In this document: one piece after another, positions 6,302 to 60,800 of the stretch
Layout: every line of letters starts with the position of its first letter
Position numbering within the stretch: the stretch's first letter is position 1
Assembly (NCBI GenBank): GCA_043823065.1
Contig: JBDRBB010000006.1
Span: forward strand, 79,094-143,093
Direction: 5' to 3'
Length of the DNA: 64,000 bases
From: Pseudomonadota bacterium
Lineage (GTDB): Bacteria; UBA10199; 2-02-FULL-44-16; DYJF01
Made by a program: the position numbers and the translations under genes
The notes under the pieces: model-generated
Told to the model about the DNA's origin: nothing
The model's input: only the letters and a program-made list of their open reading frames with translations
Database searches by the model: none

Positions 6302-6314
6302 AAAGGGAATAAAA

Positions 6315-7256
6315 TTATTTTCTTCTTCTAAAACTAATTAAAGCTAATCCCATTAAAGCCAGCATGGCCAAGCCAAACCAGCTAGTAGGACTATTTCCAA
6401 GAACCATTAAACTACAGCTTTCACCACTTTGGTTATAATAACTACTATTCAAAAGATCTTGGTTTTGGTTTTGAGACTGATTAATATTTTCACAAGCCGG
6501 CCCACTACATCTGGCATCACAAGCATCGCCAAAACCATCACCATCTGTATCTAATTGGTCTTCATTAGCCCGGCGCCAGCAATTATCATCATCATCAATT
6601 ATTCCATCTTTATCAAAATCTGATTCACAGACATCACCTATTCCATCACCATCTTTATCTAATTGATCTGGATTAGAAACGTATTTGCAATTATCACAAG
6701 CATCACCGATACCATCTTCATCGCTATCTTGCTGGCGAGAATTGTAAATTGATGGGCAATTATCAACTGCATCATCAGCACCGTCCATATCAGCATCGGT
6801 GCAAGCATCACCATCTCCATCACTATTGAAATCTGCTTGTTCGGGATTATAATCTTCAGGACAATTATCTACAGCATTAGCAATTTCATCGCCGTCAGCA
6901 TCATCGTCGCACAAATCGCCGATTCCATCAGCATCTGTATCTTTTTGATCTCGATTGGCAAGCAGGGGACAATTGTCTATTTCATCTAAAATACCGTCAC
7001 GATCATCATCATTATCGCAAACATCACCTTGACCGTCATGATCAGTGTCTAATTGATCTGCATTGGCAACGGTCTGACAATTATCCTCGCCATTAACAAT
7101 GCCATCACAATCTAAATCTAGGGTTCGGTTCATACAAGGAAGAACAACTCTGATATCAGCAATATCCGAGATGGTTGGTGGAGCAGCAAACAAGTTAGAA
7201 ACCAAAACTATGGGTAAAATAATTAGCACCAGAAATACAAATATAAGTTTTTTCAT
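6315..7256 (-). CDS. Secreted thrombospondin type-3 repeat protein, paralog of the neighbouring gene
   Basis: Signal peptide [24 protein letters not shown]. Repeated DNCPxxxNxDQxDxDxDGxGDxCD units. C-terminus [36 protein letters not shown]. Confidence 0.8.
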
Positions 7257-14648: not shown

Positions 14649-16175
14649 ATGGGAAATTGGGGATTTAATATTGATGGCGGCTTAAATCTTAGGGTCCCCA
14701 CTTCTTTAACACCAAGTGGTGTTGGCTACCACTTTGATCTAGGTGCAATTTATAATTCTACTCGGGAAAACACCTATGATCTTACCTTAGAAATTGATGG
14801 CGGCAGCCAAGAAAGAGATATTGCCAGCTGGGATTATGCCCAAGAAATCAGCACTTGGAACGTAAGCCTTGGTTTAGGCAGACAAGAGAGGCTTGGCAGT
14901 CGTAGTCCAAGCTGGGGACATGGCTATTTAATTCAAAGAAACTCTATTGGTTTAGGTGGCTTAAGACACGGCCTAGATGGCCAAGAAGATCAAGGCCTGT
15001 ATTTTCGCGCCCAATCCACCACAGGCATAGGCTGGAATTTTCATCTCTCTCAAAGTGTAGGTTTAGCCATTGAAGGCGGGCTGCAAATTGGCACCAATGC
15101 TGGAGCTGAAGGAGAAGCTTTAAGCGGAATTGAAGTAGCAATTTTGCTTTCAGCCAGACTTGTTTTTGGTCAAAGCATGAGTGAAGCAGGACAGGCTGAT
15201 GGATTTGAAAATACTTATCATCTTTTAAGTCGTTTACTAGCTATTGCCAGCTCTATTGGCATGGAATTGGCGGTCAATAGACATGCGCAAAGATTTAGCG
15301 ATTTAGGCATTGAAGTTGGAGGAGAAGCAGGACCATCCAGCACAGATGACATTCCTTTCTTGCTCCTAGCCACAAGTGCTTTAGGCAGCAGTGGCCGAGG
15401 CAGTAATTATAGATTTTTTCGCAATTCCCAAGGATGGTGGCGCGTAGTTGATCCTTTAATTGATGTCTTGCAGGGCGGCATTATGTTTGCAGTTGGTGAA
15501 AGCAATGGCAGCCGGGCTTCAGCCACTGCTAGTTTTTTAAGCGCCTTACGCATGGGAGTTAGTTTACTTTTTAGAGATAATGAACGCGGTTCAACCTTAC
15601 TTTGTCATATCATCTATATGCTAACCGCAGGAGTAGCTGCTGCTCTGGCTGAAGACAATGATGCTGGTGAAATTGTGCGTGATGGCGCAGCTTCTGCAAC
15701 CACGGCTATCACTTTATCTACCCCCCACGATGGTGAAACCACTGATATCAATTATGCTGCGGTTTATGAAGGTGGTGGCGATCAAGATGGCAGTTGGCTT
15801 GGCCAGGCTACCATAACTTATAGATATGAAGATTGGTCCTGGTTAATCACTCAGCTATATCTACGCTCTCCTTGGTTTGTACCTGGCGGAAATCATAGCA
15901 CACCTTCTTCCATAGGCACTGGCCTTGGTTTTGATTATTCTGGTAGATTATTTCAAGTCAACATTTTAGCAGAAGTAGGAACTGCTTATAGCGGCCTAGG
16001 TGGAGCAGCAGGTAGAATTGGCGCTAATGCTCAGGTTGGCATGCGCATTCCCATTGGCAGTCGTTTTATCTTAAATTTAGGGCTAACAGGAAGTGCTTAT
16101 ACCCTAGTCCCAAATTCTGGATTCAGATATGGCATAGGTTTTTATTTAGGTGGCGGACTTAGACCACGTCCTTAA
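14649..16175 (+). CDS. Gly-rich, beta-strand-rich protein of unknown function, translationally abutting the upstream lipoprotein gene
   Basis: Its ATG immediately follows the TAA of the upstream gene. The C-terminal third has alternating hydrophobic patterns (RFILNLGLTGSAYTLVPNSGFRYGIGFYLGG). No N-terminal signal peptide is seen. Confidence 0.45.
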   Translation: MGNWGFNIDGGLNLRVPTSLTPSGVGYHFDLGAIYNSTRENTYDLTLEIDGGSQERDIASWDYAQEISTWNVSLGLGRQERLGSRSPSWGHGYLIQRNSIGLGGLRHGLDGQEDQGLYFRAQSTTGIGWNFHLSQSVGLAIEGGLQIGTNAGAEGEALSGIEVAILLSARLVFGQSMSEAGQADGFENTYHLLSRLLAIASSIGMELAVNRHAQRFSDLGIEVGGEAGPSSTDDIPFLLLATSALGSSGRGSNYRFFRNSQGWWRVVDPLIDVLQGGIMFAVGESNGSRASATASFLSALRMGVSLLFRDNERGSTLLCHIIYMLTAGVAAALAEDNDAGEIVRDGAASATTAITLSTPHDGETTDINYAAVYEGGGDQDGSWLGQATITYRYEDWSWLITQLYLRSPWFVPGGNHSTPSSIGTGLGFDYSGRLFQVNILAEVGTAYSGLGGAAGRIGANAQVGMRIPIGSRFILNLGLTGSAYTLVPNSGFRYGIGFYLGGGLRPRP

Positions 16176-19288: not shown

Positions 19289-22285
19289 CTATCTAGCCTG
19301 TTGAGCGGCGCGTTGAAAAGCTTGAGCTATAATAAGCGGGGCTCCTCGCCCTGAATGAGGATCTATTATTTCTCCGCCAACTTCAACAACTATAGGATGT
19401 GGAAATGCAGCTAAAGCTTCTACAAACTCTGCTGCCAATGGAGCTCCACGACCTCTTTCTCTATTCAATCTTCCTGTAACTCTTAATTCCTGAAGAGCTG
19501 GCAACATACTAGTTATTCTTTGTAAAGCTCCTGTAGTTCTGGGATCGCTTCTTGGATTACAACGAATTATTAATCGATCTCCATCTTGTACAAACTCAAT
19601 ACCTGGAGTTCCTCTAAAAATTTCTTGGGAGACAAATCTCTCAAGTGCTGTAAAATCCATAGCAGGGGCACCATCTGCAGTGGGTGTTTGTCCAGCAACC
19701 TCACGCACCCAACCCAAAACTCTATTTACTCTATCATCTAAAGATGCTCGGTCATCGCCCCTTATGACAAGGGTTTGATCAGCATGACCTGGCCACACAA
19801 AATGGATCTCAGAACCTCTTTCTAAACTCGGCAATAAATCACGAAGTTGTCTGCCAAAAGTATCTTCATCCCATAAAATTCTTCCTGCTTCATCTCTGGG
19901 TATTCTAACTTCATGATGTCCAGATTCAACACCTCTATATGCTGCGCCAAAAATATGACTTAACCACTGATCTGCACTGGCTCCCCGAGTTGGAGCAGCA
20001 TCTACTCGTCTACCTAAATCACCATCATCTGGATTTGGTTGGCCTCCGGAGGGTCGGCCAACTGTTACTTGAGGAATCCCTGGGTTTGGTCTAGAACTAG
20101 GCTGAACATCACGTGGGGGTCTTGGTGTTACATCTGGATGATGAGATCCAACTCTGGCTGGACGAGCTGGAGCGTGATCTCTACCATCGGCAATTCCAGA
20201 GCCACTATCACCCCTGCCCCTTCCTGCCGCATGAACTCTGGCCTGGCGCAAAGCTTCATCAGCTTCAGCTTGATCAACTCTTCCGCCTCTTAGCACATCA
20301 CCTGCAGCGCCATCACCACCAACACCTCTAGCTAAAACTCCATGACCTGCTCTAGCTAGGGCAGCTCTCAAATCTCTATTGGAAGCATCTTCGTCATCAT
20401 CATCAACAGCTTGATCAAGGGCAGCAACTATTCCTGAACTTCTTGCCTCTTCGCGTCTGGCTTCTCTAACATCTGCTTCTACATTTTCAATAATTGCTGA
20501 TAAGCCACCTGAAACTGGGGCGCCGTTTAAAGTATACGCTGTGTCTGCTGGAAGCCTACTAAGTTGCGGCCTAGCAGCCCTAAGTGCAGCTAAAGCAAGA
20601 ACTGGATTATCACCAGAAGTAGTAATAGCTACAGTGCTATGTTCGCTATCTGCAGCGCCATGCTCAGCTCTGATAGTTACACCTGATCCTCTTATAGATG
20701 CTATAGCGCTGTTGGCTGCGCTAACGCGGCTATCAACTGTGCGTATTCTAGCTGATCTGGCTGCTTGAGCTGCTTCTCTTGCTTGACGAGCTTCTGCAGC
20801 TGCTCCGGCAGATGCTGCTTCTCGTTCTGCTCTTTGTAAGCGAGTAACCAAAGCTCCGACATTTTCCATTACTTCTGTACCATAACGCAACTGTGTATCT
20901 GGCAACTCAGCAATTGCTGATTGGTTTGCCTGAACAGCTCTTAATACATCTGCAGGATTGCTATCTGTTCTAAAGGTGAGAGAGCTATGCTCTGGAGTAT
21001 GAGAAGCCCTAACATGTCTAGGACCTATCGCACTAGCAACTCTGCCAACCCTAGCTTGCCTTTGTCTGATTGCTTGTTGTCTAGCTTGTTCTGCTTCTCT
21101 TACTTGGCGAGCTTCTTCTGCAGCTCTAGCTGCGGCTGTTTCTCGTTCTGCAACTGCTCTGCGGGCTGCTTCAACCCTTGTCCTTCTTTGTTCTGCTGCT
21201 CTAGCTTCTGTTGCTTCTCTTTCTTCTCTTAATCTTCTTGCTTCTGCAGTTCTAGCTTCTTCACGCTCTCTTGTTGCATCTTGCTGATCTAAGCTGGCAA
21301 CTCTTCTATCAACTATACCTCTAACCGTTTGTAAACGTGCAGCAGCGTCACCAGTAAGCAAACTTCTTTCAAACCTAGCATTAGCTCCAAGTTGCACTAG
21401 AGCTTCTCCAAATTGTTCTGAAAATTCTCCGCCTGGTGATAACAATCTCTGCAAGACTCTTGGTTCTGAACAAGTAATTCTATTATCGTCAGTTACGCTT
21501 ATACCACTAGTTGTTAATCCATTTAAATATGTTCTAGCCTGGGCACTATGATCAACCAAAGGTTCAGAACGTGGTGGTGTTGGTGGTACTGGTGGAGAAG
21601 TAACTGGACGCGCTGGTGATGGCGTCACTGGAGGCGGTGCAGGTGGAGATCGCACTGGAACTGGAGGTGGAGGAGGAGGTTCAACTGGCTCTGGTGCTGG
21701 AGGTGGAGGTGGTGCAGGCTCAACTGGAGGAGCTGGTTCTGCTGGTTCTGGCGTAGCTGCATCATCTGTAGTATCTGCAACCACCTCAGGTTCTTCATCT
21801 GGTTCAACATCATCACTATCAACAACTACATCTGCTTCTTCAGGAGTTGCAGTATCTTCTTCAGCGCCAGCAGCTCTATCACTTCTAGAAGGAGCTGACT
21901 CTTCATTATCATCTATATTAATATCAATCACTCCGCCACTTGGAGCTGGGCCAACATCTCTGCGCGTAACAAAAAATGAACGATTGGCTCCCATTTGCGC
22001 AGGTGTGGCTATTTGATTGCCAGCCATAAACCTGTTTAAGCCCAAAGAGCCATAATTCATGCTTCTGGCAATTAAGCCCTGCATATAACTAAAAGCAGGA
22101 TTAACAGCTGAAAATGAAGTGCCTAGACCGCCAATCATAGCAGCGCCATGGTGAGCAACCGAGCCACTTGTTAAATTGAGCGGACTGCCCACATAAGCCA
22201 TGGTGCTAACTAAGGCTGATAAATTGTTAGTTCCTAAATTGACCACTAAAGCCCCCAATTTGCCCAAAAAATCGTAGGATTTCAC
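19289..22285 (-). CDS. 998-aa low-complexity acidic protein. It has a Gly/Ser-rich N-terminal module, a Pro-rich linker, a long charged ER/K-type helix and a C-terminal folded domain. Paralog of the 575-aa and 500-aa proteins downstream
   Basis: N-terminal NLSALVSTMAYVGSP... resembles the 575-aa protein N-terminus (NSAINSMLTYVSLPP...). PAPPPPPAPEPVEPPPPPPVP linker. REREEARTAEARRLREEREATEARAAEQRR helix. C-terminal PGIEFVQDGDRLIIR resembles the SGIEVVIIRGNGSERILR module of the 500-aa protein. AGA/GCT codon usage is host-like. Confidence 0.6.
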   Translation of the reverse strand: MKSYDFLGKLGALVVNLGTNNLSALVSTMAYVGSPLNLTSGSVAHHGAAMIGGLGTSFSAVNPAFSYMQGLIARSMNYGSLGLNRFMAGNQIATPAQMGANRSFFVTRRDVGPAPSGGVIDINIDDNEESAPSRSDRAAGAEEDTATPEEADVVVDSDDVEPDEEPEVVADTTDDAATPEPAEPAPPVEPAPPPPPAPEPVEPPPPPPVPVRSPPAPPPVTPSPARPVTSPPVPPTPPRSEPLVDHSAQARTYLNGLTTSGISVTDDNRITCSEPRVLQRLLSPGGEFSEQFGEALVQLGANARFERSLLTGDAAARLQTVRGIVDRRVASLDQQDATREREEARTAEARRLREEREATEARAAEQRRTRVEAARRAVAERETAAARAAEEARQVREAEQARQQAIRQRQARVGRVASAIGPRHVRASHTPEHSSLTFRTDSNPADVLRAVQANQSAIAELPDTQLRYGTEVMENVGALVTRLQRAEREAASAGAAAEARQAREAAQAARSARIRTVDSRVSAANSAIASIRGSGVTIRAEHGAADSEHSTVAITTSGDNPVLALAALRAARPQLSRLPADTAYTLNGAPVSGGLSAIIENVEADVREARREEARSSGIVAALDQAVDDDDEDASNRDLRAALARAGHGVLARGVGGDGAAGDVLRGGRVDQAEADEALRQARVHAAGRGRGDSGSGIADGRDHAPARPARVGSHHPDVTPRPPRDVQPSSRPNPGIPQVTVGRPSGGQPNPDDGDLGRRVDAAPTRGASADQWLSHIFGAAYRGVESGHHEVRIPRDEAGRILWDEDTFGRQLRDLLPSLERGSEIHFVWPGHADQTLVIRGDDRASLDDRVNRVLGWVREVAGQTPTADGAPAMDFTALERFVSQEIFRGTPGIEFVQDGDRLIIRCNPRSDPRTTGALQRITSMLPALQELRVTGRLNRERGRGAPLAAEFVEALAAFPHPIVVEVGGEIIDPHSGRGAPLIIAQAFQRAAQQAR

Positions 22286-22566
22286 ACCCCAGGCACATTG
22301 CTTAGGTTTATAACCATTTGATATTACTAGCCTTTAATTAGGCTGAATTATCAAAACTCTTAAGCTTAAGGTATTGCAATTGGTGGGCCAAATTGAGGTA
22401 TTTGGTATAGGGCTTTGGGTATAGAAATCCCTTTTGGGGACGTTACCCCAATCGTTAACTTATTGATATTTTTGGTAAATAACTGGCGAGTTTTAAAAAT
22501 TAAAAACCACTGGCTCAAAAATCTCAAGTTGTCTTTTATTTAACAATGATTTTAGGTAGTTATGGA

Positions 22567-22582
22567 TGGGGGAAACGTCCCC
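22567..22582. repeat. GGGGGAAACGTCCCC hairpin, copy 1, upstream of the DUF4143 ATPase gene
   Basis: Near-identical copy at 23985-23999 (aatgggggaaaacgtcccc). A related hairpin tggggacgttacccca lies at 22433-22455. Confidence 0.7.
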
Positions 22583-22629
22583 TAGCTATGCTGATTTTTG
22601 ACTTTACTTTCGGCAAATTTGCGGCATAA

Positions 22630-23787
22630 TTGCCATATATGTACACAAGAATTCTAAAAAAACCTAAAAATTCAATTTTGCTCTTTGGCCCCAGAGGGAC
22701 AGGTAAATCAACCTGGCTTAAACAATGCTATCCAGATACTCCAAACTATGATCTGTTAAATACCCAAGAAGCCCTTCGTCTTAGCAAAAACCCTTCACTA
22801 ATCTATAACGAACTTGAAACATACCCACCTGGCACTTGGGTTGTACTGGATGAAGTACAAAAAGTACCAGCTTTGTTAGATGAAGTACATCGCCTAATTG
22901 AAAATAAAAAACTAAATTTTGTACTATCAGGCTCTAGTGCCCGCAAACTAAAAAAAGGCGGGGCCAATCTTTTGGCAGGCAGGGCTCAAATGCAACATAT
23001 GTTTCCGTTTGTTTCCAAAGAAGTGGATTTCAAAATAAAAACACCAGAAGTCTTTCGATTTGGAATGTTGCCTATGGCCTATTTAAGCCAAGAGCCAATT
23101 CCATATTTAAGAACTTATGTTGAAGCTTATTTGGCTGAAGAAATTAAGGGCGAGGCTCTAACCAGAAATATTGGAGGATTTGCCCGATTTTTAGAAATTG
23201 CAGCTAGACAAAATGGTCAAATCACCAATGTCTCCAACATTGCCAGGGATGCCCAAGTTGCCAGGCAGACTGTCCAAGGATATTTTGATATATTAGTAGA
23301 TACTTTGTTAGGTTATTGGCTGCAACCCTGGAAATTAAAACGAGCAACAAAACAAGTTGCTCATCCTAAATTTTACTTCTTTGATGCTGGCGTAGCTAGG
23401 GCTTTATCAAACAGACTTCCTTACCCTTTAACCAATGAAGAACTGGGGCCTTTGTTTGAGACATTTATTATTGGAGAAATTCAGGCCTACTTAGCTTATA
23501 CTGAATTAAACTATCCCCTATATTTCTGGAGTAGCCATGACAATGTTGAAGTTGATTTATTATTGGAAACTAAAAAAGGTTTTTTAGCTTTGGAATTTAA
23601 ATCTGCCACAAATTGGAACAAGAGCTTTAATAAAGGGCTAACCCGCATTAGCTCTGAACTTGAAGCAAACAAGGTTCGCTGTATTGGGGTTTATAATGGA
23701 GAAAGGCCAGCTAAGTTTGACTCTATTGAAGTTTTGCCACTTCTAACCTTTTTAGAAAAACTTTGGGCAGGAGATTTGATTGCTTAA
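22630..23787 (+). CDS. AAA+ ATPase of the DUF4143 / COG1373 family
   Basis: Walker A LLFGPRGTGKST, Walker B VVLDEVQ, C-terminal DUF4143-like region. Second paralog at 43434-44651. Confidence 0.75.
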   Translation: MPYMYTRILKKPKNSILLFGPRGTGKSTWLKQCYPDTPNYDLLNTQEALRLSKNPSLIYNELETYPPGTWVVLDEVQKVPALLDEVHRLIENKKLNFVLSGSSARKLKKGGANLLAGRAQMQHMFPFVSKEVDFKIKTPEVFRFGMLPMAYLSQEPIPYLRTYVEAYLAEEIKGEALTRNIGGFARFLEIAARQNGQITNVSNIARDAQVARQTVQGYFDILVDTLLGYWLQPWKLKRATKQVAHPKFYFFDAGVARALSNRLPYPLTNEELGPLFETFIIGEIQAYLAYTELNYPLYFWSSHDNVEVDLLLETKKGFLALEFKSATNWNKSFNKGLTRISSELEANKVRCIGVYNGERPAKFDSIEVLPLLTFLEKLWAGDLIA

Positions 23788-23816
23788 AAAAAACCGCCTG
23801 GAGAGAGGCGGTTCTA
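23784..23816. terminator. Hairpin plus A/T tract (CTTAAAAAAAACCGCCTGGAGAGAGGCGGTTCT), copy 1 of a 30-bp direct repeat
   Basis: Stem CCGCCT/AGGCGG. Near-identical copy at 24793-24825. Confidence 0.55.
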
Positions 23817-23845
23817 TATTGTGGCTTGTGGGGACCTTATAAAGC

Positions 23846-23917
23846 GACCATTGACTATTGACCATGGACCAAAAAACAAGGGGTGTGATTGCGAGGAGCG
23901 TTAGCGACGAAGCAATC
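23846..23917. repeat. Compound small repeats: CCATTGAC palindromes plus GTGATTGCGAGGAGCGTTAGCGACGAAGCAATC
   Basis: gaccattgactattgaccatggacc, then the inverted-repeat family member. Confidence 0.7.
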
Positions 23918-23984
23918 TCGGAAGAGTCGGTATTGTGTATTATTGACACCTAATGGGTGACCCCGGTTTTGTTTGTTAGGAATG

Positions 23985-23999
23985 GGGGAAAACGTCCCC
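23985..23999. repeat. GGGGGAAAACGTCCCC hairpin, copy 2, downstream of the DUF4143 ATPase gene
   Basis: Direct repeat of 22567-22582. Confidence 0.7.
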
Positions 24000-24032
24000 A
24001 AGTATTATTGTCCCCTAGCTTTTATTAGGTCT

Positions 24033-24353
24033 TTACGCAGCAATGGCTTCTTTTCGAACTCTGCTAAACAAAGGTGAAAGATTATCTTTTTGAAATGTAT
24101 ATGGATCAGTAAGGACAATCTGAAGGCGAGGATCAATCTGATAGGCAATTACAACAACTTGTTTTTCATATTTTTCTTTATTTTTTTTAAATACTCTTGC
24201 TACTAAACAAATGTCAATATCGCTATCAGGTCTAGCGTCACCTCTAGCATATGATCCAAATAGATATATTTTTACTTTAGGAAAAGCTTGCTTTTCTAAT
24301 TCAGCTTGAAATTTTGAAATTATTTTTCCAATAGATTTTGCAACCATAGCCAA
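24033..24353 (-). CDS. Nucleotidyltransferase (MNT/MntA-type antitoxin-like) of a HEPN/MNT pair
   Basis: LFGSYARGDARPDSDIDICLV (GSx10DxD minimal nucleotidyltransferase motif). Overlaps the upstream HEPN gene by 34 bp. Confidence 0.75.
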   Translation of the reverse strand: MAMVAKSIGKIISKFQAELEKQAFPKVKIYLFGSYARGDARPDSDIDICLVARVFKKNKEKYEKQVVVIAYQIDPRLQIVLTDPYTFQKDNLSPLFSRVRKEAIAA

Positions 24354-24721
24354 AGCTCCTTGCTTTGCTCTAAATATTTTTTAGCATAATTTTTATTAAC
24401 TTTTTTATAAAAACTTTTCAAATCTTCTGGATATCTAATTTCTAAATTAAATTTATTTATTTGGTCAAACAACTCGATCTGAGCTTTGGTTAACTCCAAA
24501 TTTGCCTTGCCAGCTAAATACAATAAATTATGCGTAAATGGAGGATGCTCTTTAGCAACCTTTGCCACCAAAGCTTTTAATAGTTTTTCCAACATCAAAT
24601 GACAAAGAAATAAACAATAATCATACTTACCGGTTCTATATAAAGACAAGGATACTTCTCTATCATGCTTTGCTGCTTCAAACCAATATTTGATTACTTT
24701 GGATATATCCTTATTAGTCAT
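24320..24721 (-). CDS. HEPN domain protein (HepT-type toxin-like) of a HEPN/MNT pair
   Basis: 134 aa from the internal Met MTNKDISKVIKYWFEAAKHD... The tracked 5' extension translates the terminator repeat. Confidence 0.65.
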   Translation of the reverse strand: MTNKDISKVIKYWFEAAKHDREVSLSLYRTGKYDYCLFLCHLMLEKLLKALVAKVAKEHPPFTHNLLYLAGKANLELTKAQIELFDQINKFNLEIRYPEDLKSFYKKVNKNYAKKYLEQSKELWLWLQNLLEK

Positions 24722-24792
24722 AAATTTAGAATATACTTTGTGCACATTTTTTTCAACTAATAATACCGATCCCTTCGCGGGGGTGGGATTGG

Positions 24793-24825
24793 TTAAAAAA
24801 AACCGCGTGGAGAGAGGCGGTTTTG
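24793..24825. terminator. Hairpin plus T tract (GTTAAAAAAAACCGCGTGGAGAGAGGCGGTTTT), copy 2. Probable terminator of the minus-strand 500-aa gene
   Basis: Direct repeat of 23784-23816. A run of eight T's follows the stem on the minus strand. Confidence 0.55.
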
Positions 24826-24858
24826 AACACACATATTATATATACTGAACAATGATTA

Positions 24859-26361
24859 TCATTCAGGGTGAGTTAAGCTAAAATTACCTAAACTAGGACC
24901 ACTTCCGTCTCCACCAAATATATTGCCACCCATTTCCAAAGTGGCACCTCCAGGAGGAATACTACCCTGGCTTGGCAAATACCTTGAATCCAAGGTCAAG
25001 GTGTTATCACCACCTGCTTCCTCTTCATCTGGCGGCTGTAAAAAATCAACAAAATCTTCATAAGTATATCTAACTGGAGTCTGATCAGCATCTTCATTTA
25101 TTTCAACTGGTTCAGAGCTTCTTTCTTCAATAGGTTCATCTTCTGGCTCCGCTGAAGAAGGTTCAACACTTCCTTCGCGCAAAACTCTTGCTGAACCATC
25201 TCCTCTAATTATTACAACTTCTATTCCTGAAGGCATGTTATCTACAGCTGTTCTTATAGCTTGGCGACGACTAGTTGCCTCATCTCCATCTCCACCAAAT
25301 TCTCTATCAAAAATACGGCGCTGACGATTTTGAAAATCAATAACCAGCCGAGCAGGTTGATCTTCCCCTTGTAATTCAACTCTGAACTGCGCTAAAGGTT
25401 CTGCTTCATTATTAAGTCTAAAACTATTCATTAAAGGTTCTAATCTACCATCCATTAAATTACAAGATGATTGACACTCTTCATCAGCTTCCCTTAAAAT
25501 TCTTTCTGAACCATTTCCTCTAATTATTACAACTTCTATTCCTGAAGGCATGGCATCTACAGCTGTTCTAATATCAGCTCGACGCCTGATTGCTTGTTCT
25601 CCCTCACCACCAAATTCCCTATCAAAGATTTGTCGCTGTGATCTAGAAAAATCAATAATCAAGCGCGTAGGCTGATCTGCTCCTTGTGACTCAAGCCTAA
25701 ATTCAGCTAGAGGGTTTTCTTGACCTTCAACTCTAAAATTTGCTGCTAATGCCTGAAATGCATCTAATCCACCAGTTGTCCTCTGCTCATGGTTAGAAAC
25801 TTCTGGTGCTGAGGAAGCAAACACCTCCAAAGCCAAACCAACAGGGTCATCAATTGGCACTGCATTATGGCTCGCTGCACGGCTAAGCGCCTCGGCATAT
25901 ATACCAAAGCTTTCATCATTACCTTCAAGAATCGCTCTTGCTTCAGCAGTAAAAAGTGAAGGACTATATTCAAATAAAGACATTATTGCATGGCATTGTT
26001 CTAGAACTTCAAGATTAGCATAAGCATCTAATTCAGATTCCTCTAAAATATTATTCTCATTTGAATCACAACTCCAAATATCTGTGCCTAATTGAATAAT
26101 ATCTGCTTGAGTTATTCTGCGAAAGACAATGAGTTCGCCTTGTCCATTGGGGACCTCAATTTCACCTCCAGTAAATAAGTCACCATTGGCAGTTAAAACG
26201 CATTGATTATCTGAATCTAGCAAACAAAATTCACCACTATCACCTGGTTCAATTTGGTCAGTATCAGAATTTTCAATTAATTCTATATTACCTATCCTAG
26301 TTTGCGTTTCATCATCTAGAATAAATAAGCCTTCTTCACTTTGTTGAATAATCAATCCCAT
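24859..26361 (-). CDS. 500-aa acidic protein with an internal tandem duplication of a ~80-aa module, function unknown
   Basis: PLAEFRLESQGADQPTRLIIDFSRSQRQIFDREFGGEGEQAIRRRADIRTAVDAMPSGIEVVIIRGNGSERILRE is duplicated as PLAQFRVELQGEDQPARLVIDFQNRQRRIFDREFGGDGDEATSRRQAIRTAVDNMPSGIEVVIIRGDGSARVLRE. No signal peptide or TM. Confidence 0.65.
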   Translation of the reverse strand: MGLIIQQSEEGLFILDDETQTRIGNIELIENSDTDQIEPGDSGEFCLLDSDNQCVLTANGDLFTGGEIEVPNGQGELIVFRRITQADIIQLGTDIWSCDSNENNILEESELDAYANLEVLEQCHAIMSLFEYSPSLFTAEARAILEGNDESFGIYAEALSRAASHNAVPIDDPVGLALEVFASSAPEVSNHEQRTTGGLDAFQALAANFRVEGQENPLAEFRLESQGADQPTRLIIDFSRSQRQIFDREFGGEGEQAIRRRADIRTAVDAMPSGIEVVIIRGNGSERILREADEECQSSCNLMDGRLEPLMNSFRLNNEAEPLAQFRVELQGEDQPARLVIDFQNRQRRIFDREFGGDGDEATSRRQAIRTAVDNMPSGIEVVIIRGDGSARVLREGSVEPSSAEPEDEPIEERSSEPVEINEDADQTPVRYTYEDFVDFLQPPDEEEAGGDNTLTLDSRYLPSQGSIPPGGATLEMGGNIFGGDGSGPSLGNFSLTHPE

Positions 26362-26395
26362 AATTCCTCTTTGATTCTCTTAATAAAATGATTGA

Positions 26396-28123
26396 TTAAA
26401 TTTGAGTAGCAGCGTCATTATCTAATCTTCTTGCAGAGCTACTTGGCCTTCTTGTACGCGCTGCTCTTTGTAAAATTCCCTGAATTGTTTCAGTACGCTG
26501 ATCTTCTTCAATTTCTCTTAAGTTTTGTTCGCCAAGTAACAACTGTGTTCCTTCTGGCAATCTATTCATAATCTCAATTAATCGAGCTACTTGTGCTTCT
26601 TCATATTGATATCCGCGCTCAAAGCTAAGTTGGATATTGCCATCTTCAGTTCTAGTAATAGTTGCATTTTCTCCAAATACTTCTCTTAGCCCAGTAATTG
26701 CTTGATCAATTGCATCTGGTGCTTCAGGAGCTGGCAAGCCATCTGTTCTGCGTTGATGCAAGCGGTCGATCATTTGGCCCATATATTCTTGAGGAGACAT
26801 TTCTGGATTAGCTAAGCGAAATTCTTCTACGCTGCCACCTGGCCAAGATAGTCGTCCGCTAGTTTCATGGAAAGTTGCTCCATCAATCAATTGGGGCTCT
26901 TGTCTGGCTTCTACTTCTGAACCTTCTTCTCCACCTTCTTCAGCTTCAACATTTCTTAATGCATAAGCTCGGCCATCTTGGATTAAAATTGTTTGTCCTC
27001 CTGTATAATCGTCTGAGCGCTCTCCTTGGCCTGGTGCTGCAACTTGATATACTTGATACTCATCGCCTCCATAAGATTGGTTTTCACCAGTTGGTCTGAG
27101 CATTACATAATCTGCAGGAGCAGCTCTCTGGATATATAGCTGGTTACTGCCACGTCGTCCCGTACCTGCTACAAAAGGAACTTGTCTATACCCACCATCT
27201 TGTTCCAGATAATAATTTTCACCTACTTGATAAATGTTTGTACCTTCAGGAATACTTAATTCTTCAGTATCTCCACCTGTAACATTAAAGACTCGGGCAT
27301 CTTGCCTTTGACCGTCAATCTCTATACTACTATTTTGCTCTCTTGGTTCAACTGTAACATGCGTGCCTCTTGCTGTTGGAGGTCTAGAAAATGGACTGCG
27401 GCCTTCTAATAAACCGCTTCCATAACGCACAAATTCTAAAGCTTCTTCATCATCCATTGGTTCATCGCCAAAACTTCTGGCGATCCAAGCTCCATATTGT
27501 TCTGCCCAATCCTCAGAATCTCTCGCAGGTAGGCCTCTCATTATTTCATCAAATCTAGTGCGATCACCATCTGCTTCGTCTTCAACTCTATCAATAATTC
27601 TTCCAGCTTCCTCTGGAGTATAACCTCGTTCATCTAAATTCTGTACAAGCCGTCTGCGTTGATCAGGTTCTAAAGTGAAATCATCCTCTGATGAATCATC
27701 CACATCTCTATCTCCATCAACATCTGAATCTCCCCAATCGCCACTGCTACTAGGAGCAGGAGGTGGGGGAGCAGACATATATTGCTGGCCTGCTGGCATT
27801 ACTCCGCCAAAACCTGGAGCGCCTGCTTGGCCTGGGGCGGCAATTCCACCAGCAGCAGTGATAGCCCTGGTATATCCTTCCAAAGCATTTTCGCCCAGCC
27901 AACCAGCGCCTTGGTGCATACCTCGCGTAGATTCAAAATTTGCAACTCGATTAAAAACATTCATCATAGCGCCATAACTGGAATCAAAAGAATCAACACC
28001 AGCTGAGCCTCCGCTATATAAACTCAAGCCTTGGCCAATTGAGCTGCCATAACTATGAGCTGGCGGCAAACTGACATAAGTTAACATGCTGTTAATTGCT
28101 GAATTAAGCACTGACCCCTCCAT
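26396..28123 (-). CDS. 575-aa acidic low-complexity protein with a Gly/Ser-rich N-terminal module (paralogous to the 998-aa protein N-terminus) and a Pro-rich linker
   Basis: N-terminal MEGSVLNSAINSMLTYVSLPPAHSYGSSIGQG..., PPPPAPSSSGDWGDSDVDGDRDVDD. The operon is contiguous with flanking genes (20-bp overlap with the 385-aa gene). Confidence 0.65.
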   Translation of the reverse strand: MEGSVLNSAINSMLTYVSLPPAHSYGSSIGQGLSLYSGGSAGVDSFDSSYGAMMNVFNRVANFESTRGMHQGAGWLGENALEGYTRAITAAGGIAAPGQAGAPGFGGVMPAGQQYMSAPPPPAPSSSGDWGDSDVDGDRDVDDSSEDDFTLEPDQRRRLVQNLDERGYTPEEAGRIIDRVEDEADGDRTRFDEIMRGLPARDSEDWAEQYGAWIARSFGDEPMDDEEALEFVRYGSGLLEGRSPFSRPPTARGTHVTVEPREQNSSIEIDGQRQDARVFNVTGGDTEELSIPEGTNIYQVGENYYLEQDGGYRQVPFVAGTGRRGSNQLYIQRAAPADYVMLRPTGENQSYGGDEYQVYQVAAPGQGERSDDYTGGQTILIQDGRAYALRNVEAEEGGEEGSEVEARQEPQLIDGATFHETSGRLSWPGGSVEEFRLANPEMSPQEYMGQMIDRLHQRRTDGLPAPEAPDAIDQAITGLREVFGENATITRTEDGNIQLSFERGYQYEEAQVARLIEIMNRLPEGTQLLLGEQNLREIEEDQRTETIQGILQRAARTRRPSSSARRLDNDAATQI

Positions 28124-29261
28124 TCACGTCTCTAATAAAATCTGCGGCGCGCAGTAAACCTTTGGCCTCACCCACAATTCTTTCTGACAAAGGCAAGGTT
28201 TCGCGAATGCGATCACCTAGGCGATCATTTAGCTCGCGAATTTCCTGCAGGCGATGCTCTACGCGTTGAATGACGTGTTGTTCTAAGATATTTCTTTTAG
28301 CCAGAACTGTTTCCAGGCCTGGATTTGGTTCATTAAAAATAATTAAGGATTCATCTTCTTGCGGAATGTCGCGCACAAAAACTGGTCTGGCCAAAGCTGC
28401 ATCTGAACCACCTTCTTCGCTAGTATCTCCACCTGCATCTGCGCCAACTCCGCCATCTAAAACTCGGCCTAAATTTCCACCTGCTTCAGACTGATAAACA
28501 GCACCGCCCCGACTGGTTCTAGATGATCTGGAACTGCTGCGATCTGAGCCATCTTTCTCTGAATCTTGGCCTCGTCTTACATCTCTTGGTTCAGCGCTTT
28601 CGCCGCGCACTTGTGGTTGCGGCTGCACAAAACGAGAGGCAAATTCTGCTGCTCTGCTAGCATCTGGCTGCCTGGCTTCCTGAGGTAATCTAGGCTGCTC
28701 AGCAGATCTGGGCTGAGGTGTTGCTGGCCTATTTACTTGAGGTTGAGGTCTAGCTTGTGGCGCTCCTTGATTTGGAACTGGATTTGGATTTTGAGGCTGC
28801 ACAAAGTTTGGAGCTTGTTGCTGTTGATTGGGCAGCGTAGAATTATTGCCTGGTTGTATATCTGGCCGGGCCACAACTGCTTGTGGAGTGGCAGCCTGCT
28901 GGGCTGGTTGAAGAGCTCTGCCTCTAGCTGCTAACTGATTCAAACCTCTGGCTTGAGATTGCGCCTGACGCACTGCTTGTTCATTTCGTTTAGCTGCTTC
29001 TTGCTCAACCTCTGGTCGCGAGGCTTGCGTTTGGCGTTCTGGTTGTCTGGATTCAGGAGTGCGGCGCGCACTAATATCTGCAGCTCTGGCACGCTGGGCA
29101 GCACGTTCAGTTCTCTCTGCCCTGGAAAGATTAGTTACCATTTCCTTGGCCACAGTCCTTCTTTGTTCTATATGCTGATCATGGCGTTCTTCGCGGGCAC
29201 GTTCCAGACCTTGTTTTTCTTGCCAACCTTCAGCAAAATGATTTGAACCAACTTTAGACAT
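28104..29261 (-). CDS. 385-aa Gln/Arg/Pro-rich low-complexity protein, first gene of the three-gene minus-strand operon
   Basis: QPQNPNPVPNQGAPQARPQPQVNRPATPQPR region. C-terminal predicted folded segment LIIFNEPNPGLETVLAKRNILEQHV. No signal peptide or TM. Confidence 0.6.
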   Translation of the reverse strand: MSKVGSNHFAEGWQEKQGLERAREERHDQHIEQRRTVAKEMVTNLSRAERTERAAQRARAADISARRTPESRQPERQTQASRPEVEQEAAKRNEQAVRQAQSQARGLNQLAARGRALQPAQQAATPQAVVARPDIQPGNNSTLPNQQQQAPNFVQPQNPNPVPNQGAPQARPQPQVNRPATPQPRSAEQPRLPQEARQPDASRAAEFASRFVQPQPQVRGESAEPRDVRRGQDSEKDGSDRSSSRSSRTSRGGAVYQSEAGGNLGRVLDGGVGADAGGDTSEEGGSDAALARPVFVRDIPQEDESLIIFNEPNPGLETVLAKRNILEQHVIQRVEHRLQEIRELNDRLGDRIRETLPLSERIVGEAKGLLRAADFIRDVNGGVSA

Positions 29262-29289: not shown

Positions 29290-29317
29290 AACGTACAGCG
29301 TACAGCGCACAGCGTCT
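29290..29317. repeat. Tandem heptamer repeat (TACAGCG)n-like
   Basis: aacgtacagcgtacagcgcacagcgtct. A similar array lies inside the metH coding sequence at 4344-4378. Confidence 0.6.
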
Positions 29318-29755
29318 AATATTGCGTAACATATTAATATTACAAGACTTATTCATAGGTTAAGCCTCAAATAAGCCATTGTTTCGTCAATATATAATGC
29401 AAGCGAGAGGCCAAAATTAGAAATAAGGAGTCAGAAGACAGGAGTCATAATAAAAAACCTTAAAAGCAAGTAATAACAACTAGTTATACAGCGGAAAAAT
29501 CAGACGGAGCAAATTATCTTCATAAAAATAGCAAATAAGTCAAAATTTAGGGCTGAAATTGAGGAATGTAGTCTCCATCAATTAGCAGCTTAGATATGAT
29601 AGCCGCTTCCCTTATAATTTTTGCATAGAAGCAATAACAAGTAACTTGTTTCAGACTGCAAATAAAAAACCTGGATCGCCACGTCGCCCTCTGGGCTCCT
29701 CGCGATGACGCTCTCAGACCATTTCGATTTTCAACATTTAGAAAACTGAACTGAG

Positions 29756-29890: not shown

Positions 29891-30005
29891 GCAGTGTTTT
29901 CTCTCTTTACGCACTTTAAAAAAAATGATATTTTCAGTTTGCCTCTGGGACGAGACAATCATAAAAATTATTAGATCTTTAACAAATCCAAGTGGGAGGG
30001 GAGTC

Positions 30006-30968
30006 ATGACAGAGCATTATCAGACAGAAAATGAAAATCTATTTCTTGATCCAGAAGAGGTTGCAGAATTTGAAGATTGGGATAGCAAAGAAGAAGAGGC
30101 AACAGATGCAACTTCAACAGCAGTTGATGTAAAACCAGCCAAGAGCCAGGTGATTTGTGTAGCCAGCGGCAAAGGCGGTACTGGCAAGACCATGGTGGCA
30201 GCTAATTTGGCAGTCTCCCTGGCTAGAGAAGGGTTAAAAGTTCTTTTAATTGACGCTGATTTCAGTTTAGCCAATTCCCATCTTATTCTGGGTTTAGAAC
30301 CTGAATACGATGTATCTTCTGTTTTCACAGGTGAAAAAACAGTTTCAGAAATTATCATTCCTGGTCCGGGTGGATTAAGACTGGTTCCTGGTGGATCAGG
30401 TTTTAGTGAACTGGCCATGTTGGGCGATGAGAAATTTTTACAACTCATCCAAGGCTTAAAAGATTTGGAAGAAGAATCTGATATAATTTTAGTAGATCTG
30501 CCAGCTGGCATTAATCCTCAAGTCATGTGTCTTTTAAATGCTGCTCATGAAATCATTGTGGTCACCACTCCAGAAGTTACTTCTTTGGTAGATGCTTATG
30601 CGTTGATTAAGTCCTTAACCAGAATGACCGACAAAGTATCTCCTCAAATCATAATTAATCGCGCCAAAGATAAAGCCAGGGCCATGGTGGCTTTTCAAAA
30701 GATTTTTAGCGTAACCAACAAACACTTAAACGGCAAAGTATCTCCAAAATTATTAGGCTGGGTACCGCAGAATTGGTATGTACTGAATTCAGTGGCAGCC
30801 AGAAAACCATTGGTACTGCGTCATCCCCAGTGTTTTGCCACAGCCTGCATGGAAATGATTGCCGCCAAAGTCTTAAGACGGCATGTTAAGTGGCTAGATC
30901 AACAAGCAGAAAGTTTAATTTATCCATCATACTTTGGGAAACTAGAAGAAATTGTCTATGGACGCTAA
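30006..30968 (+). CDS. ParA/MinD-family P-loop ATPase (deviant Walker A) with an acidic N-terminal extension
   Basis: VICVASGKGGTGKTMVAANLA (KGGxGKT), LLIDADF, ILVDLPAG Walker B-like. Start MTEHYQTENENLFLDPEEVAEFEDWDSKEEE preceded by a GGGAGGGGA ribosome-binding site. Divergent from the 385/575/500-aa operon. Confidence 0.8.
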   Translation: MTEHYQTENENLFLDPEEVAEFEDWDSKEEEATDATSTAVDVKPAKSQVICVASGKGGTGKTMVAANLAVSLAREGLKVLLIDADFSLANSHLILGLEPEYDVSSVFTGEKTVSEIIIPGPGGLRLVPGGSGFSELAMLGDEKFLQLIQGLKDLEEESDIILVDLPAGINPQVMCLLNAAHEIIVVTTPEVTSLVDAYALIKSLTRMTDKVSPQIIINRAKDKARAMVAFQKIFSVTNKHLNGKVSPKLLGWVPQNWYVLNSVAARKPLVLRHPQCFATACMEMIAAKVLRRHVKWLDQQAESLIYPSYFGKLEEIVYGR

Positions 30969-31626
30969 TTACAAGGCGGGTAGACAACTGAATAAGTTTA
31001 TTAACAGACCTCAGCGGCGGAACATTTTCAATGCTCCGCTTACGGAGATTATTCATCTTCTCAAACAGAACCCCAAGGTAATTGATCCGGAAATACACCC
31101 CATTGATGCTGATCTATTCATACCCAATATAGGTGAAATAGATATAGTAGGAGTTGACGCAAATCATTTAGTTATGGTCAGTACTTTTATCGATATCAGG
31201 GAAGATCACCTGCGCAAAGCTGCTAACATTAATCAATGGGTGTTTGAAAACTTAAGCGTGTTAAAACAGACTTATGCTACCAAAGGATTGTCTCATAATT
31301 TTACGCCGCGTATCATCTTGCTTTGCGCTAGAGTACATCCCAGCGCTAATCCTTTATTGCCTTTTATCTCAGATCTTCCGTTAGAAGTTTTCCGCTATCA
31401 ATATTTTAAGAATGAAACAAACCGTTATTTAGAACTGACCAAGGTAGAGCCAAATCAAAATAGAATAAAAACTGCCAGCTCTCCTTTATTTACTAAGCTA
31501 CCCACCAGAAAAGATGTTGAGCTCACTGCTGAAGAACTAGGCGCCTTTTATGAAGCTGCAGCTGAGCTGGAAGGTGAGGCAGAAGCTGCCCCGGCACTTG
31601 ATTTTGATGGTCCGTATTTTAATTAA
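30952..31626 (+). CDS. 224-aa hypothetical protein, translationally coupled to the ParA-like gene (17-nt overlap)
   Basis: Segment DADLFIPNIGEIDIVGVDANHLVMVSTFIDIRED weakly resembles a PD-(D/E)xK / DUF91-like core strand. Acidic C-terminal tail AAAELEGEAEAAPALDFDGPYFN. Confidence 0.45.
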   Translation: MSMDANYKAGRQLNKFINRPQRRNIFNAPLTEIIHLLKQNPKVIDPEIHPIDADLFIPNIGEIDIVGVDANHLVMVSTFIDIREDHLRKAANINQWVFENLSVLKQTYATKGLSHNFTPRIILLCARVHPSANPLLPFISDLPLEVFRYQYFKNETNRYLELTKVEPNQNRIKTASSPLFTKLPTRKDVELTAEELGAFYEAAAELEGEAEAAPALDFDGPYFN

Positions 31627-36977: not shown

Positions 36978-37606
36978 TCCAATTGCTGGGAAAACCAGCC
37001 GCCAGTGAGGGCATCTAAATTAGCGGTTTCTTGCTCAAAAGTGATTTGTTTTAAAAAGAGTTGATGTTTAAGTTTAGGGTTGTTTTTTTGCTGTTGGTTG
37101 GCTTGGCTTAAAATTGCTATTTCACCCAGAAGTTTTTTTCTTTCATAATAATGTTTATTTACAATTTCCAAGAGCAGATTGCGTTCGCGCATAATTTTCA
37201 AAGCCTGTTGGGAAACAGCCAAAGAATCTCGGCTAAATAGTAATTCATTGAGCGACCACACAGCCCGCACACCAAAACTCTGATATAAATCTGAGCCTTC
37301 GCTGTAGCCACTTTCTTCAGGACCGACCACAATGCCGCTTGAGCCAACATAGACATTATCATCTATATTTACATCTACCAAATTTTTGACCCGATGGGAA
37401 TAATCTGCCTGAAACCTGGGTAGCAAGGCTGAAATCCTGGCTCGTTTCTTCCACTTCTGAGGTTCTTGATTGTCAAAGCCAGCATAGTTAAGCGCCTGCT
37501 GCTGCACCTGCCCAATTGGCGGAGCTTCAGCAAAATCTGGCTGGGCTGAGATTAAACCCAAAATAGCAAAAATGATCATAAGCATATTGCTCCAAATACA
37601 TAGCAA
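36974..37606 (-). CDS. Secreted hypothetical protein (signal peptide)
   Basis: MLMIIFAILGLISAQPDFAEAPP signal peptide. Downstream partner of the 635-aa gene. Confidence 0.5.
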   Translation of the reverse strand: MLCIWSNMLMIIFAILGLISAQPDFAEAPPIGQVQQQALNYAGFDNQEPQKWKKRARISALLPRFQADYSHRVKNLVDVNIDDNVYVGSSGIVVGPEESGYSEGSDLYQSFGVRAVWSLNELLFSRDSLAVSQQALKIMRERNLLLEIVNKHYYERKKLLGEIAILSQANQQQKNNPKLKHQLFLKQITFEQETANLDALTGGWFSQQLE

Positions 37607-37706
37607 GGCTTATGCCATTTATCAGATCTATATTTTTTAAGGAGTTATAAATTTAGGAAATTTTTTGCTGCTCAATTTTGGGACACAACTGACGAAAATA
37701 AAGCAA

Positions 37707-43410: not shown

Positions 43411-43433
43411 TATTTTTTCCCCTATTTTTCTAT

Positions 43434-60670: not shown

Positions 60671-60800
60671 AGATTGAACACCCCTATTTTAGTCAGACGG
60701 AGCAAAATTTTAAAAAAAACATTGAATGTTATCAGACAGTTATGTTAAGGGGTTTTGGCCTGAATCTTGCTATTATACGACATGATTAAAGGGGGTAATC

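Follow-up and report, generated by a model that had tools for sequence, protein, structure and literature searches.

A native locus with sigma-54-type promoters encodes lysine-free modular proteins and their partner

Proteins of the TonB/TolA type span the envelope and are built from a rigid poly-Pro linker, a long charged helix and small alpha/beta domains, and sigma-54 (RpoN) promoters carry the consensus TGGCAC-N5-TTGCW. Features recalling both are found in the locus described here, which lies in a 64-kb contig stretch (hereafter the window) and comprises four open reading frames (ORFs) on the minus strand between positions 19289 and 29261, where a preliminary description of this DNA had placed them. 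These are p385, a partner protein of 385 amino acids (aa) (28104 to 29261); p575, of 575 aa (26396 to 28123); p500, of 500 aa (24859 to 26361); and p998, a 998-aa ORF (19289 to 22285) that probably encodes 985 aa, its start having been placed by comparison with the related locus L081 (GCA_054920855.1) at the GTG at position 22246, behind a GGGGG ribosome-binding site. A third point of comparison is the lysine desert, defined as an uninterrupted stretch without lysine of at least 150 aa or at least 50% of the sequence; known lysine-less cases are components of the eukaryotic ubiquitin system, the proteomes of Actinobacteria with pupylation, and the A chains of AB toxins entering eukaryotic cells (Szulc et al. 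2023, PMC10665810).

Our overall reading, to which we give a probability of about 55%, is that this is a native locus under sigma-54-type control whose module proteins form an assembly that leaves the cytoplasm. The anatomy and history of the locus, namely, sigma-54-type control, native origin, a partner protein next to an expanded module family, and the loss of lysine, are well supported, and sigma-54-induced structural proteins leaving the cytoplasm would be our best guess as to what it encodes. Neither the sigma-54-type promoters nor the lysine loss figured in the preliminary description.

The lysine loss is the most useful feature of the locus, being clean, statistically overwhelming and lineage-specific. 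p575, p500 and p998 (counted from GTG 22246) contain 49, 36 and 112 arginines, respectively, and not a single lysine, i.e., 0 Lys versus 197 Arg in 2,060 residues, while lysine accounts for 6.3% of residues in the window background and the 35 remaining large ORFs have K/(K+R) values between 0.33 and 0.86 (background, 0.58). All three proteins are thus lysine deserts over their entire lengths of 575, 500 and 985 aa, well in excess of the lengths required by that definition. In p385, 7 Lys remain next to 49 Arg, the retained sites including a conserved AKRNILE motif. The L081 orthologues are equally lysine-free, whereas distant orthologues are normal (K/(K+R) of 0.24 to 0.75), and alignment columns in which orthologues conserve lysine are mostly occupied by arginine in the window lineage, 60 to 72% of the arginine codons being AGA or AGG. 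Since the GC content at third codon positions (GC3) is unusually low, mutation pressure would favor AAA and AAG, and the pattern therefore indicates selection against lysine.

Two further proteins of the window are similarly depleted. The first, of 508 aa (14649 to 16175, plus strand; 0 Lys, 31 Arg), is encoded behind a 1,302-aa lipoprotein gene and has orthologues with 12 and 29 Lys in L084 and L085, respectively; the second, of 635 aa (37707 to 39614, minus strand; 1 Lys, 62 Arg), carries hydrophobic C-terminal segments. Both look membrane- or envelope-associated. By their lysine loss, these two and the four proteins of the locus can be placed in a single presumed functional class, and the loss hints at a lysine-directed selective pressure, quickly testable from a complete genome. 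Compared with described lysine deserts (PMC10665810), the present case concerns whole proteins of 500 to 985 aa, a loss confined to one lineage, and arginine at the conserved positions; it differs in that the genome is low-GC (40%), lysine-rich and Bdellovibrionota-like, that only a subset of proteins is affected, and that no link to Pup or ubiquitin is known. Lysine-less proteins are not described for a setting like this one, and our literature searches returned context on lysine deserts and nothing on the present protein family.

A sigma-54-type -24/-12 element precedes both units of the locus: TGGCCTCTCGCTTGCA (29398 to 29413, minus strand) lies 152 nucleotides (nt) upstream of the p385 start codon and TGGCCCACCAATTGCA (22375 to 22390, minus strand) 144 nt upstream of the codon at which p998 probably starts. 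Both have the invariant GG/GC and the canonical spacing, and their positions are conserved despite diverged surroundings. The pattern TGGC-N7-TTGCW has five matches in the window against 2.66 expected. Among p385 orthologues, the element lies 128 to 149 nt upstream in L081, L084, L085, L089 and L087, with one mismatch in the last, and it also stands upstream of the intact reading frame in L082; for p998-type genes, the upstream distance is 144 nt for the orthologue in L081 and 175 nt for L87_789. Altogether, 9/9 upstream regions of both gene types carry it (8 exact, 1 with a single mismatch) at 128 to 175 nt from the start codons, often as the sole match in those related loci, in leaders whose mean column identity is 47%.

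The two leaders of the window also have a motif in common, ATATTAATATGTTA (29327 to 29340, minus strand) in the p385 leader, approximately 55 to 65 nt downstream of the -12 element, and AATATCAAATGGTTA (22311 to 22325, minus strand) in the p998 leader. Its consensus, ATAT(T)TCAA-N3-4-GTTA, is present in 9/9 aligned leaders of both gene types, some 60 nt downstream of the -12 element. An Rfam scan of the region returned no family match, and a leader of approximately 130 to 150 nt in which such a common motif recurs has not been described as an element; a generic sigma-70 and terminator scan gave nothing above shuffled sequences. Given the common promoter element and the common leader motif, the p385-p575-p500 unit and p998 are very probably co-regulated.

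Close to the start codon, the leaders diverge. In the window (29292 to 29313, minus strand) and in L081, the p385 leader carries GCTGTACG-type tandem repeats directly before the ribosome-binding site, and in L084, L085, L087 and L089, a hairpin, GCTCAC-N9-GTGAGC, is found instead, immediately 5' of GGAGTTCCCATATG, with a compensatory A-U pair in L085. Repeats and hairpin may represent a translational control element, one without a counterpart in Rfam. Further sigma-54-type matches occur in the window at 37602 to 37617 (minus strand) and 60756 to 60771 (plus strand), one upstream of an unannotated 210-aa ORF and the other 30 nt upstream of the gene of a 203-aa SLT lytic transglycosylase.

The preliminary description took the four proteins for paralogs sharing modules. 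For p575, p500 and p998 this is correct at the profile level, the shared unit being a single alpha/beta module of approximately 70 to 100 aa, here called the M module, while p385 has to be left out. We defined the M module from the C-terminal ~75 aa of p575, and jackhmmer collected P0005 to P0008, P0010, P0011, L81_652 (twice), L87_789 and L81_638, drawing the p500-type repeats of L81_638 into the family. Four p500-type repeats aligned by hhalign to a strict M profile over 67 co-linear columns with a score of 20.8 (P = 0.0031), compared to 9.5 ± 1.8 (maximum, 15.3) for column-shuffled profiles, none of 150 shuffles reaching the observed value. Modules m1 and m2 of p998, combined with an extra module from L081, matched the M family with a probability of 85% (score, 33.2; P = 6.6e-6), compared to 8.1 ± 1.6 (maximum, 13.7) after shuffling, and again 0/150 shuffles attained that score.

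These scores bear on the possibility that the four proteins are unrelated low-complexity orphans whose likeness is an artifact of composition. In favor of this view, all-versus-all BLAST of the four window proteins, including 70-aa fragments, gave nothing significant between different proteins, the N-termini of p998 and p575 align with a probability of only 2%, and m1 and m2 resemble each other pairwise only with an E value of 0.079, phmmer finding no second copy after masking of m1. However, the profile scores are far above both the composition-preserving column-shuffled controls and random-segment controls, the alignments are co-linear over 49 to 70 columns and in register at the LPxGT-strand motif, and clear M modules are present in L87_789 and L81_638, the positional equivalents in other genomes. 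As a general account, coincidence is thus highly improbable: the data refute it for p575, p500 and the middle of p998, leave it possible for the N-terminal regions, and bear it out for p385. The profile-profile comparison by HHalign suggested in the preliminary description was accordingly significant for the module, and the likeness goes beyond composition. The locus provides a worked example of modular proteins that lie beyond pairwise detection and are yet recognizable by family profile and gene position.

Along p998 (all on the minus strand), a low-complexity N-terminus (21911 to 22246) is followed by an acidic stretch (21746 to 21910), a poly-Pro stretch (21578 to 21745), an M-like module termed pre (21320 to 21547; hhalign score, 18.5), an Ala/Arg/Glu helix (21026 to 21289), the M modules m1 (20765 to 20998) and m2 (20426 to 20650), both recognized by hhalign with the M family, and three M-like C-terminal segments, c1 (aa 772 to 850, 19736 to 19972; score, 21.2), c2 (19466 to 19681; score, 16.5) and c3 (19292 to 19510; score, 15.0). 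The score of c1 exceeded those of all 200 random 80-mers taken from real window proteins (maximum, 20.2), those of pre, c2 and c3 were at or near the 99th percentile of random segments (15.1), and a local-shuffle test on p998 gave a p value of 0.002. By these profile comparisons, the M module is present once in p575, twice in p500, and at least three times, probably six times, in p998. We rejected m1 and m2 as a self-evident internal repeat, their support coming from the family profile only. The preliminary description had also related the GIEFVQDGDRLIIR module near the C-terminus of p998 to the p500 repeat. The match as given proved to be out of register, since GIEFVQDGDRLIIR, in c2, aligns to strands 1 and 2 of the module while 'PSGIEVVIIRG' of p500 corresponds to strand 3; a hidden Markov model (HMM) of the p500 repeat found neither p998 nor p575.

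Comparison with other genomes supports this anatomy. p998 is 53 to 60% identical to its L081 orthologue in conserved blocks. L87_789, which is encoded between the p575-type gene and RmuC, i.e., in the position of p998, contains an M module (E = 5.5e-12) and is laid out like p998, from a Gly/Ser-rich N-terminus over an acidic and a poly-Pro stretch to modules and an Ala-rich helix; it shares another module with the C-terminus of P0005 (44% over 84 aa). L81_638, the p500 orthologue, harbors two p500-type repeats and a clear third M module (BLAST to P0007, E ~ 2e-4), and M-module copy number thus differs between the window and L081.

The tandem duplication reported for p500 was confirmed. In the protein, an N-terminal beta/helical domain bearing a conserved C-x8-C hairpin is followed by two M-type repeats in tandem and an acidic tail; repeat 1 (aa 202 to 299, 25465 to 25758, minus strand) and repeat 2 (aa 307 to 404, 25150 to 25443, minus strand) are identical at 59 of 98 residues (60%; E = 3e-38). 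Their DNA sequences share 70% identity, and a synonymous divergence (dS) of 0.70 rules out a recent duplication. AlphaFold2, run on p500 without an alignment, gave a b-b-a-a-b-b order at a confidence (pLDDT) of ~60, and the p500 model, with a pLDDT of 49, was too poor for a fold search.

p998 and p575 had further been said to share a Gly/Ser/Ala-rich N-terminal module. Likeness in composition and position, and in the Pro-rich and acidic stretches that follow, was borne out; homology was not, hhalign aligning 14 columns with a probability of 2%. The N-terminal ~110 to 130 aa of both proteins are nearly uncharged, with 36 to 43% Gly, Ser and Ala and 7% Asp, Glu, Lys and Arg, against 21% and 23% in the background. 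With more sequences, hhalign remained nonsignificant (probability, 0.6 to 2%; P, 0.02 to 0.1) and the HMM reached only E ~ 0.35. p998 and its orthologue were the top two nonmembers found by this N-terminal HMM, in register, and a short motif is common to both regions.

Nor did the label of intrinsic disorder hold for p575. In an AlphaFold2 model based on a 9-sequence family alignment, 309 of the 575 residues (54%) had a pLDDT of at least 70, distributed over three folded domains, the low-confidence parts being the disordered aa 1 to 146 and the linkers. On the minus strand, these parts are the low-complexity N-terminus (aa 1 to 135, 27719 to 28123), a helical domain with a 'GY(S/T)xEEA' motif (aa 150 to 235, 27419 to 27676; pLDDT ~88), a beta-rich domain (aa 255 to 430, 26834 to 27361; pLDDT ~85), and the single M module (aa 468 to 545, 26489 to 26722), which was recognized by jackhmmer and modeled, within aa 444 to 556, as a helix plus an alpha-beta-beta-alpha-beta unit with a pLDDT of ~80 (H468-486, E487-491, E497-501, H509-519, E528-530). 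Going by this model, the picture of modular proteins in which disordered linkers join folded domains fits better than that of intrinsic disorder. Strong acidity marks both p575 (net charge, -50) and p500 (net charge, -63).

The predicted order of the M module is met in two-layer alpha/beta sandwiches, and this raises the idea of a periplasmic or trans-envelope ring, in which tandem M modules would act like the ring-building motifs of PrgH, YscD and CdsD or like secretin N-domains. The module of P0011 indeed matches Pfam Secretin_N (E = 0.004), and the locus of the relatives lies beside the peptidoglycan-remodeling genes SLT/LysM, PBP4 and NagZ. Nevertheless, M-module scores against ring-building motifs and Secretin_N (PF03958) are all below the family thresholds, the proteins have neither signal peptide nor membrane anchor, and other secretion-system genes are missing from the vicinity. 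We consider a ring structure quite improbable; the resemblance may be that of a generic two-layer sandwich.

p998 has its poly-Pro linker, charged helix and alpha/beta domains in the order known from TonB/TolA envelope proteins, and differs from them in lacking an N-terminal transmembrane anchor and any TonB_C or TolA Pfam match. Its helix had been presented as an ER/K-type helix of about 100 residues. What we found is a segment of approximately 90 residues (333 to 420) made almost entirely of Ala, Arg, Glu and Gln, in which the likeness to ER/K single alpha-helices lies; it departs from them in having no lysine (A, 25%; R, 24%; E, 17%; K, 0%) and a modest i/i+4 pairing, with 10 opposite-charge pairs in 95 residues. 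It could equally be a coiled coil. The charged stretch is kept in the L081 orthologue, and P0010 has a comparable Ala/Glu/Lys-rich one.

p385 does not belong to the family announced as having four members: it shares no module with p575, p500 and p998 and has an orthologue series of its own. It has a SNHFAEGWQxK motif at its N-terminus and a helical domain at its C-terminus (aa 290 to 385, 28107 to 28394, minus strand), with a charged helix, a Q/P/N-rich linker and an S/R-rich stretch as its other parts. Orthologues are located immediately 5' of a p575-type gene in L081, L084, L085, L087, L089 and L083, the one in L081 being 54% identical (E = 1.6e-108), and the two genes overlap by 20 nt in the window and by 4 nt in L084 and L089. 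p385 is a distinct, better conserved and translationally coupled partner rather than a paralog of the other three. Such a pair forms the core of the locus: a gene for a partner of ~390 aa and, directly downstream and in most cases overlapping it, a gene for a large acidic protein made of a low-complexity N-terminus, a helical domain, a beta domain and M modules in varying number. In L082, a near-identical strain, TAA replaces GAA at codon 14 of p385 (L082 ~640 to 660, corresponding to ~29220 in the window), so that this copy is either truncated, restarted at codon 14, or an assembly error.

Relatives of these proteins are extremely rare. None of the four, nor eight of their relatives, gave a match above threshold in Pfam, NCBIfam or PHROGs, and no PDB sequence was matched by the family profiles of p575 and p385 or by the C-terminus of P0010 or p998; the only Pfam leads, below threshold, were Secretin_N for P0011, as mentioned above, and RuvA domain III for aa 133 to 178 of P0005. 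In a word-indexed search of 5.8 billion proteins, p500 retrieved only itself, p575 two relatives and the p385 C-terminal profile one, and an exhaustive profile search of 1.84 billion cluster representatives gave nine proteins for the p575 family. Alignments of p385 against metagenome contigs (two scans) and viral contigs had no match, the first metagenome scan and the viral scan having used low-complexity back-translated patterns. The families are thus without relatives in curated libraries or among solved structures. The lineage with the locus is small and uncultured, and its nearest labeled relatives are Bdellovibrionota-type metagenome assemblies.

Within that lineage, L081 has all four genes in identical order, with a different toxin-antitoxin pair and a transposase at the equivalent insertion site; L082 holds a partial copy, and L083 a partial copy with a distant p385/p575 pair. 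Relative to L082, the ratio of nonsynonymous to synonymous substitution (dN/dS) is 0.12 for p385 and 0.21 for p575, and this, together with the orthology to L081, L082 and L083, identifies real genes under purifying selection. Smaller forms of the cluster beside RmuC and NAD kinase occur in at least four further metagenomic lineages, those of four of the nine p575-family proteins. In L084, L085/86, L087/88 and L089/90, the neighborhood reads GH3, p385-like, giant p575-like, RmuC. The full conserved series begins with SLT/LysM, PBP4, OppABC, GH3, a p385-like gene (385 to 403 aa) and a p575-like gene (820 to 1,511 aa) and continues after RmuC with NAD kinase, a cytidylyltransferase-like gene, a 577- to 673-aa protein and a lipoprotein of ~1,240 aa, shorter contigs carrying part of it only; the NAD kinase and cytidylyltransferase-like genes follow in L084, L085/86 and L089/90 and the lipoprotein gene in L084 and L085. 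The window keeps the RmuC side, where flanking genes are 48 to 68% identical (RmuC, 64 to 68%; lipoprotein, 54 to 56%), while p385 and p575 are only 25 to 36% identical to their orthologues in those genomes. This synteny and the gap in divergence show that the locus is ancestral and fast-evolving and was not imported, in agreement with the native origin already claimed for it.

An imported island of mobile-element or phage origin might nonetheless be suggested by the locally raised GC content (0.48 in p998 compared to ~0.40), by the toxin-antitoxin genes and the DUF4143 ATPase inside the region, and by the rarity of the family. The GC rise is, however, limited to codon positions 1 and 2 and hence reflects amino acid composition: in the four genes, GC1 is 0.57 to 0.69, GC2 0.42 to 0.56, and GC3 0.20 to 0.31, below the 0.35 of the host. 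The block of toxin-antitoxin and ATPase genes was inserted separately and has an ordinary lysine content, searches for phage, plasmid and viral-contig relatives gave no match, and chromosomal synteny is kept across lineages. A recent import is thus extremely improbable and effectively refuted by the synteny. The statement that codon usage matches the host holds for synonymous choice, which correlates with r values of 0.85 to 0.95, the range of host genes; it does not hold for GC3, and AGA makes up 52% of the arginine codons in the four genes compared to 26% in host genes.

Rapid shuffling of paralogs, another element of the preliminary description, has to be restricted to the three module proteins, p385 not being a paralog. 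The genes of the locus evolve fast, and the module copy number of these three varies between genomes; in the sister lineages the large protein is a single 820- to 1,511-aa gene, sometimes with a second paralog, while the window lineage has three genes. From these comparisons, we infer that p575, p500 and p998 arose by duplication or fission with gain and loss of modules.

Since the locus is conserved, under purifying selection and co-regulated, it must do something specific in this poorly known bacterial lineage. In the mechanism we favor, the p385-p575-p500 unit and p998 would be switched on together by an enhancer-binding activator, and p385 and the module proteins would form one multivalent structural assembly in which the M modules would mediate protein-protein interactions, with the long Pro-rich, charged and low-complexity stretches as spacers. 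This assembly would end up outside the cytoplasm, at the cell surface, in the medium or in a target cell, along a route that uses no Sec signal peptide, the conserved extreme N-terminal motifs possibly acting as an export recognition signal, and the lysine loss would reflect exposure to a lysine-directed hazard, such as a Lys-specific protease or Lys tagging or cross-linking. Export is favored because membrane-like proteins share the lysine loss and because the extreme N-termini are conserved. A bolder and only tentative version would have p575, p500, p998, largely p385, and the 508-aa and 635-aa proteins form a previously unknown sigma-54-induced export set of structural or effector proteins sent, along a route reading the N-terminal motifs, out of the cell to where lysines are attacked. 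The attacker could be a Lys-specific protease, the cell's own or a competitor's, or ubiquitin- or Pup-like tagging by a host or prey, and replacement of Lys by Arg could be the adaptive signature. If this is true, zero lysine in a lysine-rich proteome would be a cheap genomic marker of the exported proteome in such lineages.

Several points weigh against our reading. Export is deduced solely from the N-terminal motifs and the missing lysine, neither the window nor the related loci show a secretion system, and for proteins without a signal peptide the default localization is cytoplasmic. The lysine loss could have other causes, for example, avoidance of acylation or a charge-pattern requirement. 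For the sigma-54 assignment, the evidence consists only of the sequence pattern and its conservation; no rpoN gene, activator or upstream activator site was identified in the 64-kb window and the 10-kb flanks covered, and no Sigma54_activat domain was found among the scanned window ORFs. As to the modules, the links of pre, c2 and c3 are individually weak (P, 0.007 to 0.023), these segments having been chosen by eye, and homology of the p998 and p575 N-terminal regions is unproven. Finally, the history of fission and duplication is drawn from only about six lineages.

Because neither an export signal nor export machinery is visible, a cytoplasmic scaffold or condensate hub is a serious rival. 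In that case the proteins would self-assemble inside the cell like polar organizing proteins, with the low-complexity N-termini driving association, and the loss of lysine would have its use there, for example, in escaping acylation or a Pup-like tag. p385, p575, p500 and p998 indeed lack transmembrane segments and signal peptides (their highest 19-residue Kyte-Doolittle means are 0.4 to 1.28), and an aromatic/Gly/Ser-rich uncharged N-terminus, acidic linkers and repeated interaction modules would suit such a hub, as would the ParA/MinD-type ATPase gene located divergently beside p385 in the window and in L081. This adjacency is, however, specific to that lineage: in L084, L085, L087 and L089, it is a GH3 gene that precedes the cluster, and no cluster accompanies the nearest relatives of the ParA gene, in L001 and L002. 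In addition, the 508-aa and 635-aa lysine-free proteins look membrane- or envelope-associated, and no known hub family matches. We regard the scaffold as unlikely and retain an assembly that leaves the cytoplasm as the preferred reading.

A functional link of the ParA/MinD gene to the cluster was rejected because other lineages do not keep the adjacency, its position being a local rearrangement common to the window and L081. The ATPase, which has an acidic N-terminal extension, forms a conserved pair with a downstream gene for a 224- to 228-aa protein (29925 to 31626, plus strand, in the window; 2133 to 3831 in L001; 10007 to 11615 in L002), behind which the window and L001 have SPFH and SdhB genes, and a GATTGTCTCGTCCCAGAGGC block 5' of the ParA gene is conserved between the window and L081.

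Between p500 and p998 lies an insertion that is not part of the system (22630 to 24832) and in which Pfam identified an AAA_14/DUF4143 ATPase (22630 to 23787, plus strand), a nucleotidyltransferase (24033 to 24353, minus strand) and a HEPN protein (24320 to 24832, minus strand). Differing small inserts are found downstream of module-protein genes in three genomes, namely, the one just described, L081 6122 to 7832, with a DUF4258/MqsA-like pair and a Y1 transposase, and L084 14638 to 15300, with an HTH_3 gene and a 90-aa ORF; in the window and in L081, the insert sits directly upstream of the p998 promoter. The site looks like an insertion hot spot. Elsewhere in the window (42410 to 44651, minus strand), a Y1 (IS200-like) transposase adjoins a second AAA_14/DUF4143 ATPase, the two gene types that make up the cluster inserts of L081 and the window, respectively.

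The C-terminal regions of the family members differ, and residues ~700 to 985 of P0010 (L085 10001 to 12958) show a Cys...His...Asp pattern and a helical tail, resembling a transglutaminase-like peptidase with TPR repeats, a likeness that neither Pfam nor the PDB sequence search supports. The window as a whole is chromosomal DNA typical of a diderm, with ~40% GC and genes including MetH, SdhABC, PurH, Alr, Mla and AcrB. At 5324 to 7256 (minus strand), it encodes two adjacent, very acidic proteins that consist mostly of thrombospondin type 3 (calcium-binding) repeats.

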